IMG/VR virus record: IMGVR_UViG_3300016486_001578
Origin: a virus
Lineage: Duplodnaviria; Caudoviricetes
Direction: 5' to 3' (one strand)
Length of the DNA stretch: 64,000 bases
Numbering within the stretch: the first letter of the stretch is position 1; every line of letters starts with the position of its first letter. A program made the position numbers and the translations under genes. Below the pieces are notes generated by a model. The model saw only the letters and a program-made list of their open reading frames with translations, did no database searches and was not told the DNA's origin. Of this stretch, positions 27,350-59,870 are shown piece by piece.

Positions 27350-27377
27350 CTTATAAATTTCTTTTAATATATACCAT

Positions 27378-31916: not shown

Positions 31917-33149
31917 ATGATATTAAGAAAAGCCACAATCGAAGATAAAATTTTTATGTCCAAAGAATTAATTAGGAAAGTATCAGATAAAAAATATTCC
32001 TTACAATTCTTACCCGAAGTTTTCGAAAAACTAGTAGATAAAAAACACATAACTTATAATAATAAGAAATTAAAAGTCGATTACATTATCGATATAATTA
32101 ATTCACTAATATTGAAGTATTATTTCAAAAAAGAAAATGCCTTTTTATTAAACGCCACTATTCTAAGAGATAGATATGGATATTTGTATAATTATTATAT
32201 AAATTATCTAAAAGATACAGGCACTATAATTTTAAAAGCAAATTATAGAAAAGGTATAAATTCAAGGATATATGCCTTAAATAACAATATTTTAAAAGAT
32301 AAAATTACTAAATATAAAAACTACGATAAAATACTTTTACGGAAATATAAAAGTAGAACCTTTAAAACAATAGAAAATTCTGGTGAAATAGAGGGAATTG
32401 ATTCAAAGATTAAAGAAAGACTTATAGTTAGCCTATTTAATATAGATATCGATTTCGATAGGTCACTATTCTTTCTAAACACATTAAAGGATAAAGACAT
32501 TGACATATATAACAGAAATTTATATTCTGTTGATAGCATACGAAATAAACATATATTTTATCATTTTGATAAATATGGGCGAATGCACACAAACTATACT
32601 ATATTAAGATCCTTCATAAGAAAAAATTGTCTATTAATAGATGGTGAGAAAACATTCGAGATTGATGTATCAAACTCACAACCCTTATTTCTAAGTAAAT
32701 TAATATTAGAAACTCAAACAAATTGGGTAAAGGCGGATGAGTTTTCTATATTTAGGGATTTAACAAAGAATGGTAAATATTATCAGTATTTAGTTGATGT
32801 CCTTGGACTAAAGGATAAAAAAGAAGCCAAGAAGCTAACATATAAAGTTCTCTTTGGTAAGAACTATAAAAACAGCAAACCAGATAGCCTATTTAAAAAG
32901 GCTTTTCCTGGTATACATAATTTCATATGTCTATATAAAAAAGAACATGGTGGGTATAAGATTCTATCACACCATTTACAAAAAATGGAATCTAATCTAA
33001 TCTATAACAAAATAATCGGAAGGATATTATCAAGATATCCAGAAATGGATATAATAACTATACATGATAGTATAATCGTTAAAGAGAAATATAAAGATGA
33101 TGTATCTTCTATATTTAATTCGGAGTTATTATCAGAATTTGATTTTTAA
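31917..33149 (+). CDS. Family A-related polymerase domain protein (TV-Pol-like), no exonuclease domains
   Basis: GRMHT, EIDVSNSQP (motif A), AKKLTYKVLFG (motif B), LQKMES, TIHDSII (motif C). Confidence 0.65.
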   Translation: MILRKATIEDKIFMSKELIRKVSDKKYSLQFLPEVFEKLVDKKHITYNNKKLKVDYIIDIINSLILKYYFKKENAFLLNATILRDRYGYLYNYYINYLKDTGTIILKANYRKGINSRIYALNNNILKDKITKYKNYDKILLRKYKSRTFKTIENSGEIEGIDSKIKERLIVSLFNIDIDFDRSLFFLNTLKDKDIDIYNRNLYSVDSIRNKHIFYHFDKYGRMHTNYTILRSFIRKNCLLIDGEKTFEIDVSNSQPLFLSKLILETQTNWVKADEFSIFRDLTKNGKYYQYLVDVLGLKDKKEAKKLTYKVLFGKNYKNSKPDSLFKKAFPGIHNFICLYKKEHGGYKILSHHLQKMESNLIYNKIIGRILSRYPEMDIITIHDSIIVKEKYKDDVSSIFNSELLSEFDF

Positions 33150-33160
33150 TATATATTTAC

Positions 33161-45285: not shown

Positions 45286-45510
45286 GATAAAGAATTTAAT
45301 TATTAGTATAAACGAATTTAAAACAAAAACTATGGGATATTTTATTATAACACTAATCTTTTTATTTATATGTGTGTTATTTTACAAACTTACGAATGTG
45401 AATTGGTATCATCAATTTTTAACACAAGATTTTAAAGATAAAGATTGGTTCACGAAACTTGTTAAATGGTTGGTGAATTGATTTTTTATTAAAATAAAAT
45501 AGAAAATAAA

Positions 45511-45542
45511 TTTGCAGGTATAAAAACTTTGTTATATATTTG
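45511..45542 (+). promoter_or_regulatory. Bacteroidota-type promoter upstream of the tRNA operon leader
   Basis: TTTG (45511-14), 20 nt, TATATTTG (45535-42). Confidence 0.7.
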
Positions 45543-45596
45543 TAGTATAATTAAAGAAAAACAAAAAGGAACAATAATAAATTAATATATAAAATT

Positions 45597-45753
45597 ATGA
45601 ACACAACAACTTTAAATACAAACTTATCACTGAGATCTCTTTTATTAAGAGAAGGGTCGGGATTTGTCTTATTTGAACGTTGTGATAGTAAATAATTACT
45701 ATAATAATATATCTAATACAAACCCGATACTCATAAAAGTATCGGGTTTTTTT
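45597..45753 (+). promoter_or_regulatory. Leader-peptide attenuator of the tRNA cluster (leader ORF 45597-45695)
   Basis: Leader MNTTTLNTNLSLRSLLLREGSGFVLFERCDSK. Antiterminator TCGGGATTTGT (45657-67) pairs with ACAAACCCGA (45718-27). Terminator AAACCCGATACT/AGTATCGGGTTT plus T tract ends 2 nt before the first tRNA. Confidence 0.75.
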
Positions 45754-45755
45754 AT

Positions 45756-45839
45756 GCACTTGTGGTGGAATTGGTAGACACCCTGGTCTTAGAAGCCAGT
45801 GCTCGGAAGAGCGTGAGAGTTCGATTCTCTCCAAGTGTA
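45756..45839 (+). tRNA. tRNA-Leu(TAG), long variable arm
   Basis: CTGGT-CTTAGAA-GCCAG; canonical D and T loops. Confidence 0.95.
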
Positions 45840-45846
45840 CTATAAT

Positions 45847-45933
45847 GCGGCTATGATGAAATTGGTAGCACATGCTAGACTTAAAATCTAGTGGATAGTA
45901 ATGTCCGTGCGGGTTCGACTCCCGCTAGCCGTA
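45847..45933 (+). tRNA. tRNA-Leu(TAA), long variable arm
   Basis: CTAGA-CTTAAAA-TCTAG; GTTCGACTC T-arm. Confidence 0.95.
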
Positions 45934-45940
45934 CAAAAAT

Positions 45941-46013
45941 GGCCCTATGGTGTAACTGAATAACACACACGCCTTCTAAGCGTATATTCCAAGTTTGAAT
46001 CTTGGTAGGGTCA
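45941..46013 (+). tRNA. tRNA-Arg(TCT)
   Basis: ACGC-CTTCTAA-GCGT; acceptor GGCCCTA/TAGGGTC. Confidence 0.85.
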
Positions 46014-46026
46014 CAAAAAATTAAAT

Positions 46027-46101
46027 GCTCTGGTAGCCCAATTGGAAGAGGCAATAGTTTTAGAAACTATACAGGTGTGGGTTCAAATCCCACTCGGAGT
46101 A
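46027..46101 (+). tRNA. tRNA with TAG (Leu) anticodon but a short variable loop
   Basis: ATAGT-TTTAGAA-ACTAT; variable region of only about 5-6 nt; discriminator A. Confidence 0.8.
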
Positions 46102-46105
46102 CAAT

Positions 46106-46186
46106 GTCTCAGTAGTCCCAGTTGTCTTCTAAACAACTACGGGTAATTGGATGCTGAAAATATAGGTTCGAATCCTATCTGAGACA
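46106..46186 (+). ncRNA. Non-canonical tRNA-like RNA (TCT anticodon hairpin, no D-arm at the normal position)
   Basis: Perfect acceptor GTCTCAG/CTGAGAC-A and T-arm ATAGG-TTCGAAT-CCTAT. AGTTGT-CTTCTAA-ACAACT lies only 7 nt after the acceptor stem. Confidence 0.65.
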
Positions 46187-46191
46187 CAAAT

Positions 46192-46242
46192 ATCTTGGTG
46201 GTGAAACCGTGTACGCTGCGGGTTCGACTCCCGTCCAAGATA
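46192..46242 (+). ncRNA. Mini tRNA-like RNA (acceptor stem plus T-arm, no anticodon arm)
   Basis: ATCTTGG/CCAAGAT-A; GCGGG-TTCGACT-CCCGT; 51 nt. Confidence 0.6.
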
Positions 46243-46257
46243 CAAAATGAAAGTAAA

Positions 46258-46431
46258 ATGATAATAGAGATAGATAATAAGACATATTTGGTAGAACCTT
46301 GTAAGCATTGTAAAAGAGATGATATCATTTATATAGAGAGTGATTTACCATGGAGTGATAGTAAATTTATATGTGATTTCTGTTGCTCTACCTATTCAAT
46401 ATTTGATACTAATATAGCAAATAAGATATAA
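46258..46431 (+). CDS. Small Zn-ribbon-like protein inside the tRNA cluster
   Basis: MIIEIDNK...CKHC...CDFCC. Confidence 0.5.
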   Translation: MIIEIDNKTYLVEPCKHCKRDDIIYIESDLPWSDSKFICDFCCSTYSIFDTNIANKI

Positions 46432-46450
46432 ATTTGAATAAGAAAAATAA

Positions 46451-46524
46451 GGCTTTGTATCATAATCGCATAATGAAATAGTTTCCTAAACTATCCTATG
46501 TGGGTTGGAATCCCTCCGAAGTCA
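46451..46524 (+). tRNA. tRNA-Arg(CCT), degenerate T-loop
   Basis: ATAGT-TTCCTAA-ACTAT; acceptor GGCTTTG/CGAAGTC; T-loop TTGGAAT. Confidence 0.7.
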
Positions 46525-46542
46525 CAAATAAAAAAATAAAAT

Positions 46543-46647
46543 ATGAAAACTAAAAATACATTACTACTACTACTCAAAGAATGATTCTTCTTTAGTATAG
46601 TAATACCTTATACTCAAGTCTTATCATTAATTTGATAAGACTTTTTT
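46543..46647 (+). promoter_or_regulatory. Leucine leader-peptide attenuator of leuS (leader ORF 46543-46584)
   Basis: ATG AAA ACT AAA AAT ACA TTA CTA CTA CTA CTC AAA GAA TGA = MKTKNTLLLLLKE. Terminator AAGTCTTATCA-TTAATT-TGATAAGACTT-TTTT (46616-47) ends 26 nt before the leuS ATG. Confidence 0.85.
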
Positions 46648-46673
46648 GTTAAAAAAAATTAAAAATATAAATC

Positions 46674-48299
46674 ATGAATATAAAAGAAATAGAAAAAAAG
46701 TGGCAAAATAAATGGATAGAAGATAATTCATTTAAATTTGATGTAAACTCTAATAAAGAGAAGAAGATTATCATACCTATGTTTCCTTACCCCTCTGGTA
46801 ATATACATATGGGTCATATGAGAAATTATACAATATCGGATGTGATTGCTAGATATTGGCGAAATAAAGGATTTAACGTTTGTCATCCAATGGGTTGGGA
46901 CTCATATGGTTCACCAGCAGAAAGTGCTGCTATAAATAATAATGTACATCCAAAAGAATGGACTGATATCAATATTAAGAATATGAAAGAGCAAATGATT
47001 AGAATGGGTATGTCATTTGATTGGAGTAGAGAAATATCAACATGCGAGGTAGACTATTGGAAAAATGAACAGAAGTTCTTTATTGATATGTGGAAAAAAG
47101 GATATATTGATAAGAAGATTGGTTATGTAAACTGGGATCCAATAGATGAGAGTGTGGTTTCAAATGAACAAGTTATAGATGGTAAAGGGTGGAGAACAGG
47201 TGCTATAATAGAACAAAAAGAAATGATACAATATTACTTTAAAACAACTATGTTTAAAGATGATATGATGAATGTATCCTCTTGTGAAGAATGGCCTGAT
47301 AATATTACTAAGCAACAAGTAAACTTCATGAGTAAGGGTATAAGAAATGGTGATGATATAAACCCATTCTCAGATTGGTGTGTATCAAGACAGAAATATT
47401 GGGGAACACCAATACCTATGATCAATTGTGACAAATGTGGAACTATTCCAAATGAGAATATCCCAGTAGTAGCACCAATTGATGTTGACTTTAATGGAAA
47501 GGGTAATCCTATAAGAAATCATGCAACATGGGCGAATATAAAATGCCCAAATTGTGGTGGTGATGCTGAGAAAGAAACAGATACAATGGATACATTTGTT
47601 CAATCATCTTGGTACTTTATAAGATATATCTCAGATTTTTTTAATGGTGAGTTCGATCATGATGTTATTAAAAAAATGTTCCCAATTGATTACTATATTG
47701 GTGGCTCAGAACATGCTAATAGTCATATGATTTATTCTAGATTTTTTTGGAGAGTTTTTAAAGAAATGAATTATATACCTAAAAATACCTCAATAGAACC
47801 ATTTAAAAAAGTAATAACACAAGGTATGGTGAAAAATGGTGGGAAAAAGATGAGTAAATCAGCAGGTAATGGTATATCACCAATTGATGTAGTTGATAAA
47901 TATGGTTGTGATGTTGTAAGAATGTATATGATGTTCAGTGGACCAGTTGAACAAGATATTGATTGGAATGAAGATGGTATAAAAGGTGTGTCTAGATTTA
48001 TAACTAAAATTATAAATGCTATAACTAAAATAAAAGATAAAGATTTCATATATATTAAAAATGTAAAAAATGAACAAATATCTAAAACTAAAATAGAAGA
48101 ATTGAATAAAAGAATTGAAAATGTATATGAAGATAATATGAAATTTAATACAATAATAGCATTTTCAATGGAAACATATAATGCAATATCAAAAACAACT
48201 GATATAAATATATGGAAAGAGGGAATAGATACCATAATGCGTGGTATAGGTCCAATAATTCCACATATTTATAGTGAAAATTATGAAAATTATGAATAG
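46674..48299 (+). CDS. leuS: Minimal leucyl-tRNA synthetase (no CP1 editing domain, no C-terminal domain)
   Basis: MFPYPSGNIHMGH, GWDSYG.PAE, DWCVSRQKYWGTPIP, ETDTMDTFVQSSWY, YIGGSEHA, KMSKS; 541 aa. Confidence 0.92.
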   Translation: MNIKEIEKKWQNKWIEDNSFKFDVNSNKEKKIIIPMFPYPSGNIHMGHMRNYTISDVIARYWRNKGFNVCHPMGWDSYGSPAESAAINNNVHPKEWTDINIKNMKEQMIRMGMSFDWSREISTCEVDYWKNEQKFFIDMWKKGYIDKKIGYVNWDPIDESVVSNEQVIDGKGWRTGAIIEQKEMIQYYFKTTMFKDDMMNVSSCEEWPDNITKQQVNFMSKGIRNGDDINPFSDWCVSRQKYWGTPIPMINCDKCGTIPNENIPVVAPIDVDFNGKGNPIRNHATWANIKCPNCGGDAEKETDTMDTFVQSSWYFIRYISDFFNGEFDHDVIKKMFPIDYYIGGSEHANSHMIYSRFFWRVFKEMNYIPKNTSIEPFKKVITQGMVKNGGKKMSKSAGNGISPIDVVDKYGCDVVRMYMMFSGPVEQDIDWNEDGIKGVSRFITKIINAITKIKDKDFIYIKNVKNEQISKTKIEELNKRIENVYEDNMKFNTIIAFSMETYNAISKTTDINIWKEGIDTIMRGIGPIIPHIYSENYENYE

Positions 48300-48309
48300 A
48301 AAACTAAAA

Positions 48310-49359
48310 ATGAATAAAGTAGATAAAAAATATTTAAAACTTCTTAAAAAAATTTTAAAAAAAGGAATAGTTAAAAAAGATAGAACCAGAACTGGGACAA
48401 TATCCTTATTTGGTCATTCGATGCGTTTTAACATGAGTGATGGCTTTCCACTATTAACGTCTAAAAAAATGTTTACAAAAGCAATAATAATTGAATTAAT
48501 ATGGTTTATAAATGGAGATACTAATATTAAATATTTAGTTGACAATGGATGTAATATCTGGAATGGAGACGCTTATAAAAATTATTGTAATAAGTATTGG
48601 ACATTAGATGAATTATGTAAAATTGAATATGGTAGCTCATATTATGATCATGAGTTAAATGAATATAATTTTGAAGTTTGGACAATTGAAAAATTTATTG
48701 AGAAAATAAAAACAGATGATGTCTTCTGTAAAAAATGGGGTGAGTTGGGACCAGTATATGGGAGACAATGGCGTGATTTTAATGGCGTTGATCAATTTAA
48801 AGATTTGTTAGAAACTCTTAAAAAAAATCCGGACTCTAGAAGAATGATGGTTAGTGCATGGGATCCATCAAAACTTAATGAAATGGTTCTACCACCTTGC
48901 CACTTTAACTTCCAATGTTATACAACAGAAATGACTTACAATGAAAGAATTAAAAGGTGGTTAAAATCTATCAATAAAGATGAATCATATTCAAAAGAAA
49001 TGACAATGGAAAAATTAGATTTACAAGGATTTCCAAAAAGAAAATTGGATATAAAATGGAGTCAACGCAGTTGCGATTTTTTCCTAGGAATTCCGTTCAA
49101 TATAGCATCCTATGGTCTCCTACTACATTTATTAGCAAAAGAAGTTAATATGATTCCTAATGATTTAATATTTTCCGGTGGAGATTGTCACATCTACCTA
49201 AATCATATAGATGTTGTTAAAGAACAATTAAAAAGTGAAACATTTAAATTATGTAATTTGGAGTTATTGAATAACTCAATATTTAATTTAAAATATGAGG
49301 ATTTTAAGATTCTAAATTATAAATCTTCCCCTGTATTAAAAGGAAAATTATCAAATTAA
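48310..49359 (+). CDS. thyA: Thymidylate synthase
   Basis: DRT.TGT, LGPVYG, DSRRM, LPPCH, QRSCDFFLGIPFNIASY, GDCHIYLNH. Confidence 0.95.
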   Translation: MNKVDKKYLKLLKKILKKGIVKKDRTRTGTISLFGHSMRFNMSDGFPLLTSKKMFTKAIIIELIWFINGDTNIKYLVDNGCNIWNGDAYKNYCNKYWTLDELCKIEYGSSYYDHELNEYNFEVWTIEKFIEKIKTDDVFCKKWGELGPVYGRQWRDFNGVDQFKDLLETLKKNPDSRRMMVSAWDPSKLNEMVLPPCHFNFQCYTTEMTYNERIKRWLKSINKDESYSKEMTMEKLDLQGFPKRKLDIKWSQRSCDFFLGIPFNIASYGLLLHLLAKEVNMIPNDLIFSGGDCHIYLNHIDVVKEQLKSETFKLCNLELLNNSIFNLKYEDFKILNYKSSPVLKGKLSN

Positions 49360-58324: not shown

Positions 58325-59870
58325 TTTAATGAAGCACCTAAAAATATTTGAAAACTTTAATTCTGATGAGAAAATTCATGAAATTTGTAGAAAATATAAT
58401 ATCGAAAATTATACTATAAATCCGGATGGATCAATAGATGTTGATGGTGATGTTTATTTATATAGAAAAGGATTAACTAAAATTCCACTGAAGTTTAGAA
58501 AAGTTAGTGGTCATTTTTATTGCCATAATAACAAATTAACTTCATTAGAGGGCTCTCCAACTTCAGTCGGTGGTGATTTTAGTTGTGATGATAATAAATT
58601 AACTTCATTAGAAGGTGCTCCAAAGTCGATCGGTGGAGATTTTAATTGCAATTATAACCAATTAACTTCATTAGAAGGTGCTCCAACTTCAGTTGGTGGT
58701 AAATTTAATTGCGGTGGTAACCAATTAACTTCATTAGAAGGTTCTCCAACTTCAGTCGGTGGATATTTTTATTGCCATGATAACCGATTAACTTCATTAG
58801 AGTTTGCTCCAACTTCAGTCGGTGGTAATTTTGATTGTCATAATAACAAATTAACTTCACTAGAGTTTGCTCCAACTTCAGTCGGTGGAGGTTTTTATTG
58901 TCATAATAGCAAATTAACTTCATTAGAAGGTGCTCCAACTTCAGTCGGTGGTGATTTTTATTGCCATTATAACCGATTAACTTCATTAGAGGGCTCTCCA
59001 ACTTCAGTCGGTGGTGATTTTTATTGTGATAATAATCAATTAACTTCATTAGAAGGTGCTCCAACTTCAGTTGGTGGTAAATTTAATTGCCATGATAATC
59101 AAATAACTTCATTAGAAGGTTCTCCTCTTTCAGTCGGTGGCCATTTTTATTGTTATAATAATCCAGTCTATGAGGTATACAATCTATTCAATGATAAAGA
59201 CAAAATAGAACTTCTAAACGACTATGACATCTTTAGAAAGGTTAATGGAAACCCAGCTATTATTTTAGATAGGCTAAATTCATTCCTAGAAGACATAGGA
59301 AAAGAATCGGTTACTGAAGTTAAAGGATATATTAATATATAGTTTAATGAAACACCTAAAAATATTTGAAAACTTTAATTCTGATGAGAAAATTCATGAA
59401 ATTTGTAAAAAATATAATATCGAAAATTATACTATAAATCCGGATGGATCAATAGATGTTGATGGTGATGTTTATTTAGATGAAGAATCATTAACTAAAA
59501 TTCCACTGAAGTTTAGAAAAGTTAGTGGTCATTTTTATTGCAATTATAACCGATTAACTTCATTAGAAGGTTCTCCAACTTCAGTCGGTGGAGGTTTTTA
59601 TTGCCATGATAACCAATTAACTTCATTAGAAGGTGCTCCAACTTCAGTTGGTGGAGGTTTTTATTGCCATAATAATCAAATAACTTCATTAGAAGGTGCT
59701 CCAACTTCAGTCGGTGGTGATTTTTATTGCCATAATAACCAATTAACTTCATTAGAAGGTGCTCCTCTTTCAGTCGGTGGCCATTTTCATTGCCATTATA
59801 ATCAAATAACTTCATTAGAGGGTGCTCCTCTTTCAGTCGGTGGTAATTTTTATTGTAAAAATAATCCAGT
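57730..59870 (+). repeat. 66-bp coding repeat arrays (TTAACTTCATTAGAAGGTGCTCCAACTTCAGTCGGTGG...) in three tandem paralogs
   Basis: Direct inspection shows about 21 units. Confidence 0.9.
58329..59342 (+). CDS. LRR-like 22-aa repeat protein 2
   Basis: MKHLKIFENF; ten units. Confidence 0.85.
   Translation: MKHLKIFENFNSDEKIHEICRKYNIENYTINPDGSIDVDGDVYLYRKGLTKIPLKFRKVSGHFYCHNNKLTSLEGSPTSVGGDFSCDDNKLTSLEGAPKSIGGDFNCNYNQLTSLEGAPTSVGGKFNCGGNQLTSLEGSPTSVGGYFYCHDNRLTSLEFAPTSVGGNFDCHNNKLTSLEFAPTSVGGGFYCHNSKLTSLEGAPTSVGGDFYCHYNRLTSLEGSPTSVGGDFYCDNNQLTSLEGAPTSVGGKFNCHDNQITSLEGSPLSVGGHFYCYNNPVYEVYNLFNDKDKIELLNDYDIFRKVNGNPAIILDRLNSFLEDIGKESVTEVKGYINI

Follow-up and report, generated by a model that had tools for sequence, protein, structure and literature searches.

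A putative leucine leader-peptide attenuator in front of the leucyl-tRNA synthetase gene of a giant phage

How giant phages control their tRNA and aminoacyl-tRNA synthetase genes is largely unknown, and the leuS locus analyzed here raises this question in a concrete and testable form: what is the role of the short leader open reading frame (ORF) and the terminator that fill the 130-nucleotide (nt) gap preceding the leucyl-tRNA synthetase (LeuRS) gene? The locus lies in a 64,000-nt stretch of the virus record IMGVR_UViG_3300016486_001578 (Caudoviricetes), hereafter the window, which has 27.7% G+C and is part of a 548,945-bp contig. The leader ORF begins with ATG at 46543, ends with TGA at 46582–46584, and encodes in 13 codons the peptide MKTKNTLLLLLKE. 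An earlier note on this DNA, made from the sequence alone, had read five tandem Leu codons (TTA CTA CTA CTA CTC) in this leader, and they were confirmed in frame at 46561–46575. According to second-order Markov simulations of the window, the expected number of short ATG-initiated ORFs with at least five consecutive Leu codons is 0.2 in 64 kb, both strands counted; exactly one was observed, and it stands before leuS. The terminator follows the leader stop codon after 31 nt and is itself separated from leuS by 30 nt. It is very likely that this arrangement is a classical ribosome-mediated transcription attenuator, in which a leader peptide ties the expression of the phage LeuRS to the supply of charged tRNA-Leu.

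Three structures were predicted in the leader transcript. The intrinsic terminator (46616–46650) has the stem AAGTCTTATCA / TGATAAGACTT, in which 46616–46626 pairs with 46633–46643 around a 6-nt loop, and continues with TTTTGTT. Its predicted energy in the window is −12.8 kcal/mol, and a terminator scan recovered the 11-bp stem (46616–46643) and the U tract; the 11-bp terminator had been noticed before. The second structure, the 1:2 hairpin (−10.0 kcal/mol), is formed by region 1 (46560–46581; minimum-energy fold and helix covariation), which holds the Leu codons, and region 2 (46588–46604; folding), which also supplies the inner strands of the antiterminator. In the window, 11 of the 15 bases of the Leu run are paired in this minimum-energy hairpin, and its core is the 1:2 helix of the earlier note. 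The fold of the whole leader has a z-score of −4.66, and none of 200 shuffled sequences folds as well. The third structure, the antiterminator (46580–46628; −10.4 kcal/mol), was obtained by folding the transcript as it exists before the 3′ arm of the terminator, with the Leu-codon region masked under a stalled ribosome. It pairs 46580–46585 (AAUGAU) with 46623–46628 (AUCAUU), 46590–46592 (CUU) with 46616–46618 (AAG), and 46594–46600 with 46608–46614, and its AAUGAU strand overlaps the leader stop codon. In a control in which the intervening segment was shuffled, the joint p value was 0.01. The proposed 2:3 helix was confirmed, although it makes up just the inner portion of this larger antiterminator, and the closing helix 46580–46585:46623–46628 surrounds it. 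The 2:3 helix alone was rejected as a sufficient antiterminator, because it overlaps the terminator by 3 nt only and coexists with it at equilibrium; for the same reason the closing helix matters. As modeled, the Leu-codon hairpin, the antiterminator, which uses most of the 5′ arm of the terminator, and the terminator itself are mutually exclusive.

We propose the following course of events. Transcription probably continues from the preceding tRNA-Arg gene into the leader, whose 13 codons a ribosome would begin to translate. When Leu-tRNA is plentiful, the ribosome would reach the UGA codon (46582–46584) and cover both the AAUGAU strand and the CUU at 46590–46592, so that the antiterminator would be blocked, the terminator would fold, and transcription would end before leuS. 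When Leu-tRNA is scarce, the ribosome would stall on the first Leu codons (46561 onward), hold region 1, and leave 46580–46604 free. This free segment could then pair with 46608–46628, which includes most of the 5′ arm of the terminator, before the 3′ arm is made, and the polymerase would read into leuS. If the leader were not translated at all, the 1:2 hairpin would lock region 2, and termination would be the outcome again. Such a course would involve translation of the leader, coupling of transcription and translation in the host, and read-through that responds to leucine, and we infer regulation by leucine as the function of the attenuator from the features described here.

The same arrangement recurs in related phages. 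A search with the window LeuRS found about 45 short LeuRS proteins (~540 amino acids, aa) on large phage-like contigs, from which 16 distinct loci were compared, with the window included among the leader-bearing ones, and 11 leaders were folded and aligned. The layout of leader, terminator, and leuS is present in 12 of these 16 giant-phage loci (LeuRS 62–78% identical), each with a short ORF containing an in-frame run of 3–5 Leu codons and then a hairpin with a U tract upstream of leuS. According to the earlier note, its reading would be refuted if homologous loci had no Leu run or had it in another frame. The comparison came out in favor of the reading: in these 12 loci, the in-frame run, the terminator, and a nearly fixed spacing are all retained. 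The distance from the leader ATG to the leuS ATG is 125–146 nt in 11 of them, and in the twelfth (L089/L090) a 75-aa ORF lies between the terminator and leuS. The leader peptides of the relatives' set are MKTNNTLLLLLRKE, MRTNNALLLLLNKTDNDLV, MKANRTSLLLLLNKQVNDLI, MKTIFVNTLLLLSLF, MKQNSLLLALLLDLAFVW, MKSQFTSLLLLSNESVFV, MKFISTYSLLLSALRKC, MKFNVVNNSLLLSVMQNR, MNINANTLLLLTLL, MNFKSTYNLLLISS, and MNTKTMNDNKFSLLLGSR. They are 13–20 residues long, their conservation is nearly confined to the Leu run and the MK or MN start, and further Leu codons often occur outside the run. The four closest leaders have five Leu codons each, differently written: besides the run of the window, these are CTA TTA CTA TTA CTA in L085, TTA CTA CTT TTA TTA in L087, and TTA CTA CTT TTA CTA in L088. 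All differences between the Leu runs of the window and its relatives are synonymous. In a control set of 69 other leuS loci, most of them bacterial, no Leu-rich short ORF was present within 260 nt upstream; this set was taken from a metagenome scan, which returned mostly bacterial LeuRS. A scan of viral contigs with a single LeuRS protein found no loci, and an alignment-based scan recovered three.

The structures are conserved together with the ORF. When the free RNA of every leader was folded, the Leu-codon region paired with a segment at or just past the stop codon, and the terminator also formed. In the 11-sequence alignment, 84% of cells pair in the 1:2 and terminator helices, compared with 35–46% when the partners are slid by 1–3 columns; 17 pairs have changed on both sides, and none of 500 shuffles reached the observed covariation score. 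Compensatory changes were found in 10 of the 14 pairs of the 1:2 helix and, across the 11 loci, in 7 of the 11 pairs of the terminator, where 92% of cells pair. An example of covariation is CUUUUAUUAAA/UUUAAUAAAAG in L087 versus UUUUACUAAAU/AUUUAGUAAAA in L088. The antiterminator was predicted in all 11 leaders folded, with energies of −9.5 to −13.4 kcal/mol and with 3–11 nt of the 5′ arm of the terminator paired (at least 6 in 10 of the 11). In every leader, the start of its 5′ strand falls within an interval from 14 nt ahead of the stop codon to 5 nt past it, and with a ribosome placed at the stop codon the antiterminator vanishes in the folding. Shuffle controls of the antiterminator gave joint p values of 0 to 0.06 per locus (8 loci). 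Among the seven more distant loci, 82.5% of cells are paired in the antiterminator helix (GYGCUGAG with CUCRGYAC), compared with 29–40% when slid, and the helix contains four compensated pairs. Moreover, the close and distant groups have quite different antiterminator sequences, each complementary to its own terminator. When the same folding procedure was applied to Escherichia coli leuL as a positive control, it yielded the known 1:2 hairpin, antiterminator, and terminator.

Several observations weigh against an attenuator, beginning with the behavior of the full-length leader, which at equilibrium retains the terminator under every ribosome mask. An early suspicion that there is no true antiterminator arose from these masks, which never removed the terminator, and was resolved by folding the transcript that lacks the 3′ arm. 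Since the equilibrium fold keeps the terminator, and given the energies of the three structures, the predicted switch must be kinetic, as in classical attenuators. The choice in the trp leader is likewise kinetic. Furthermore, the closing helix of the window is just 6 bp long and mostly A–U. It begins 7 nt downstream of the base that opens the last Leu codon, and would therefore stay free only if the ribosome stalled at about the first three or four Leu codons. The AAUGAU/AUCAUU pairing is also invariant in the four closest loci and is thus without covariation support there, so in these loci it is consistent but uninformative. The leader of the window has neither a promoter nor a TTAATATATA motif of its own. 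Finally, 4 of the 16 related loci are without a leader, which is therefore dispensable. In two of these (L086 and L001), a GIY-YIG homing endonuclease gene adjoins leuS, and in the other two (L002 and L004) tRNA genes adjoin it. The LeuRS of L086 is 88% identical to that of the leader-bearing L085, and because the endonuclease gene abuts leuS in L086, the mobile gene seems to have displaced the attenuator in such loci. The endonuclease genes (L086:1–747 and L001:3605–4375) end 4 nt before the leuS start or overlap it; NUMOD motifs occur in that of L001, and the leader and terminator are absent from both loci.

The expression signals around the leader were considered in the context of the whole window. 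No promoter-like element fits in the 17-nt gap between the tRNA-Arg(CCU) gene and the leader. A Shine-Dalgarno-like motif was found in 1 of the 26 long ORFs of the window, so the missing motif of the leader is normal for this genome. The host, which does not use Shine-Dalgarno sites, probably belongs to the Bacteroidota. In several relatives the leader is immediately preceded by TATATTTGTAA, which resembles the −7 box of Bacteroidota. The bare box TANNTTTG is not enriched in the window (101 matches versus 108 expected) and is therefore no evidence, and the assignment of the host stays an inference; the longer TATATTTGTAA context before the relatives' leaders is suggestive. A further motif, TTAATATATA, occurs at 19 sites in the window versus 4.3 expected, a number that none of 100 shuffles reached. 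Its sites (e.g., 27364–27373, 33146–33155, 45582–45591, and 59332–59341) lie mostly 5–30 nt before gene starts, and it also precedes the leader of the unit at 45597, described below, and the leuS leaders of L087, L088, L003, L091, and L093. This motif could be a promoter of the phage or else a signal for the start of translation.

The alternative that survives best, a very improbable one in our judgment, is an untranslated structured RNA switch, of the T-box type or another protein- or tRNA-binding kind, in which the Leu codons are kept merely as a helix strand. In most loci, region 2 is indeed the pairing partner of the Leu codons, and this pairing also survives many of the Leu-to-Leu changes (TTA to CTA), so the coding and pairing constraints are not fully separable. 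On the other hand, all 12 loci have an ATG, an open frame of 13–20 codons, and a stop codon from which the antiterminator strand can be reached, though stop codons are frequent at 28% GC, and only the ATG frame gives a run of a single amino acid in every locus. A cmscan search of 45300–47000 against Rfam at E up to 1 gave no match to Leu_leader (RF00512), T-box, or any other Rfam family at the leuS leader. T-box leaders of Firmicutes, those of leuS among them, are similar in that the terminator before a synthetase gene is read through when the tRNA is uncharged. However, they bind the uncharged tRNA directly and need no translation, whereas the phage unit keeps a conserved ORF.

The hairpin and U tract could also be the plain terminator of the upstream tRNA operon, with the short ORF having arisen by chance from an AT-rich (TAC)n repeat and playing no regulatory part. 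The leader indeed starts 17 nt past tRNA-Arg(CCU) without its own promoter, the trinucleotide repeat TTACTACTACTACTC could result from slippage, and the terminator is stable in every equilibrium fold. However, most leader-bearing relatives have no tRNA gene directly upstream and still possess the ORF, the in-frame run, and a terminator at a fixed distance from leuS, while their run is not a simple repeat (e.g., TTA CTA CTT TTA TTA). With the 0.2 chance ORFs expected per window and none in the 69 control loci, a tRNA operon terminator beside a chance ORF is very unlikely. Hardly any weight can be given to readings in which the short ORF senses no amino acid and either encodes a hydrophobic micro-peptide with a function of its own or promotes leuS translation by re-initiation in a host without Shine-Dalgarno sites. 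Such re-initiation leader ORFs were proposed to boost downstream translation (PMC4833913), and the genes of the window are generally without Shine-Dalgarno motifs. However, the leader stop and the leuS ATG are 81–94 nt apart and have a strong terminator between them, which is ill-suited to re-initiation. A membrane peptide would be expected to be longer and less variable than these peptides of 13–20 residues, whose conservation is limited to the Leu run and the first residues.

Returning to the leader-peptide attenuator, the codons of the run were compared with the tRNA supply of the phage. It had been suggested that CTA is read by two tRNAs with a UAG anticodon that are encoded just upstream. 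ARAGORN found both genes (45756–45840 and 46027–46102), together with one tRNA-Leu(UAA) gene (45847–45934), and all three have Rfam tRNA matches. The putative sensor is not specific to CTA: the relatives mix TTA, CTA, CTT, CTC, and CTG. In the long ORFs of the window, Leu is encoded by TTA (56%), CTA (18%), TTG (12%), CTT (11%), CTC (1.6%), and CTG (1%), and in the 11 leaders by TTA (46%), CTA (24%), CTC (11%), CTT (11%), and CTG (7%), so that CTN codons are moderately enriched in the leaders. Between them, the phage tRNA-Leu(UAG) and tRNA-Leu(UAA) should suffice for most, if not all, leader Leu codons, although the reading of CTC would require extended wobble by the UAG anticodon.

The mechanism itself is a textbook one, and its interest is in the phage setting and not in a new principle. 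The leader had been called leuL-like, and this holds for the architecture, which is analogous, and not for descent, as no Rfam leader family was matched and the two are not homologous. The enterobacterial leuL likewise has a short ORF with a Leu run (CTA ×4 in MTHIVRFIGLLLLNASS... of E. coli K-12), a 1:2 hairpin that encloses these codons, an intrinsic terminator, and an antiterminator built with the 5′ arm of that terminator. It differs in that leuL has a 28-codon leader on a bacterial chromosome that uses Shine-Dalgarno sites and controls leucine biosynthesis genes, whereas the phage, which is without such sites, has a 13-codon leader that would control a synthetase. In E. coli pheST, a synthetase gene does stand behind a leader peptide, pheM, which is rich in its own amino acid, and a terminator. 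In contrast to the phage unit, however, pheST senses Phe and is a host chromosomal operon for a full-size enzyme, and a relation in sequence is not to be expected. It is the established gamma-proteobacterial precedent for leader-peptide attenuation of a synthetase (PMC1262725). Candidate attenuators were also predicted computationally upstream of leuS and trpS in Streptomyces (Seliverstov et al., 2005, PMC1262725). The Streptomyces leuS candidate shares the leader ORF with Leu codons, the antiterminator, and the terminator (PMC1262725), but it belongs to a GC-rich actinobacterial chromosome, whereas here the unit belongs to a giant phage at 28% GC, beside phage tRNA-Leu genes, and precedes a LeuRS that lacks the editing domain. 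For flavobacteria, attenuation by leader peptides was suggested in the case of amino-acid operons (PMC9723704). Our literature search found no paper describing leader-peptide attenuation of a phage gene or of a phage synthetase gene.

If the attenuator works as proposed, the phage would monitor the decoding of Leu codons during infection and top up its charging capacity on demand, and a ribosome stalling on a leader peptide, the oldest known amino-acid sensor, would here decide on the production of a phage LeuRS. It would also mean that the ribosome follows the RNA polymerase closely enough in such hosts for attenuation, which would be indirect evidence of transcription-translation coupling. 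Many uncultured giant phages have kept this element, which could serve as a compact reporter of Leu-tRNA status for hosts that do not use Shine-Dalgarno sites.

The product of the gene behind the leader (46674–48299; 541 aa) is a LeuRS, with 588.6 bits for TIGR00396, the bacterial leuS model, against a cut-off of 548.4. Its C-terminal domain is absent, as are about 200 residues that make up the CP1 editing domain, and its catalytic core is intact. In the alignment to the LeuRS structure 7nty, residues 222–232 of the phage protein span residues 228–430 of the chain, and the alignment stops near residue 790 of 877. A further attenuator-like unit (45511–45753) lies before the tRNA genes. It has a promoter-like TTTG-N20-TATATTTG at 45511–45542 and a 32-codon ORF (45597–45695) that encodes MNTTTLNTNLSLRSLLLREGSGFVLFERCDSK with a Leu/Arg core, followed by a 12-bp terminator (45720–45749) found by the terminator scan. 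The part at 45597–45753 shows a predicted switch in the same folding procedure: with a ribosome on the Leu/Arg core, GUCGGGAUUUGU pairs with the 5′ arm of the terminator (−20 to −22 kcal/mol), and with a ribosome at the stop codon this pairing is absent. Weak Rfam matches to Thr_leader and Trp_leader (E about 0.7) fall at 45652–45755 and not at the leuS leader. It is possible, though we regard it as doubtful, that the two attenuators (45597–45753 and 46543–46650), the phage tRNA-Leu genes, and the LeuRS without its editing and C-terminal domains form one self-regulating leucine-decoding module. In such a module, the leader would report the charging of the phage tRNA-Leu, and the private synthetase would be made only when this pool runs low, e.g., after damage to or shutdown of host translation.

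The features described here between 45500 and 49400 are on the plus strand. The tRNA array called by ARAGORN extends over 45756–46185 and includes, besides the tRNA-Leu genes, a tRNA-Arg(UCU) gene between them (inside 45756–46102) and an odd tRNA-like gene at its end. The latter (46092–46185) is a 94-nt tRNA-Arg(UCU) call that overlaps the end of tRNA-Leu(UAG), and Rfam gives it just a weak tRNA-Sec-like score (24.8 bits). A 60-residue frame with paired Cys motifs (CKHCK ... CDFCC) and no Pfam match lies between the array and tRNA-Arg(CCU) (46249–46431). The tRNA-Arg(CCU) gene itself (46451–46525) was called by ARAGORN and has an Rfam tRNA score of 46.5 bits. On the 3′ side of leuS, a thymidylate synthase gene follows at 48274–49359. 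Other phage-type genes of the window include homing endonucleases, pieces of a DNA polymerase, and a peptidase. The closest GenBank relatives of the window are the uncultured phages LR756501-3 and LR745206, which have been termed megaphages (PMC9723777).

The earlier note had also proposed a survey of the regions upstream of phage synthetase genes for runs of cognate codons. Such runs were present in the 12 of 16 short-LeuRS phage loci, but in four related phage records surveyed with PF00133, PF00587, PF00750, and PF00152 no cognate leader ORF was found upstream of class II-like genes. In one of the related loci (L115; LR756501 87149–90946), a long GC-rich imperfect hairpin (CTTGGCGAG...CTTAGGGTTCGCCAA) lies ~70–170 nt 5′ of a 291-aa class II synthetase-like gene on the minus strand. 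It is followed by a terminator-like GGTGGGG...CCGCCC stem and has no leader ORF; this region may be a different RNA control element. Finally, a conserved structured segment (AAGATTGCTTACAGCAAA ... GGTTCGARTCCAACC) with a T-arm-like end was found upstream of the tRNA-Leu arrays in L001 (2870–2990) and L002 (2440–2570), and it may be a tRNA-like or tmRNA-like gene.
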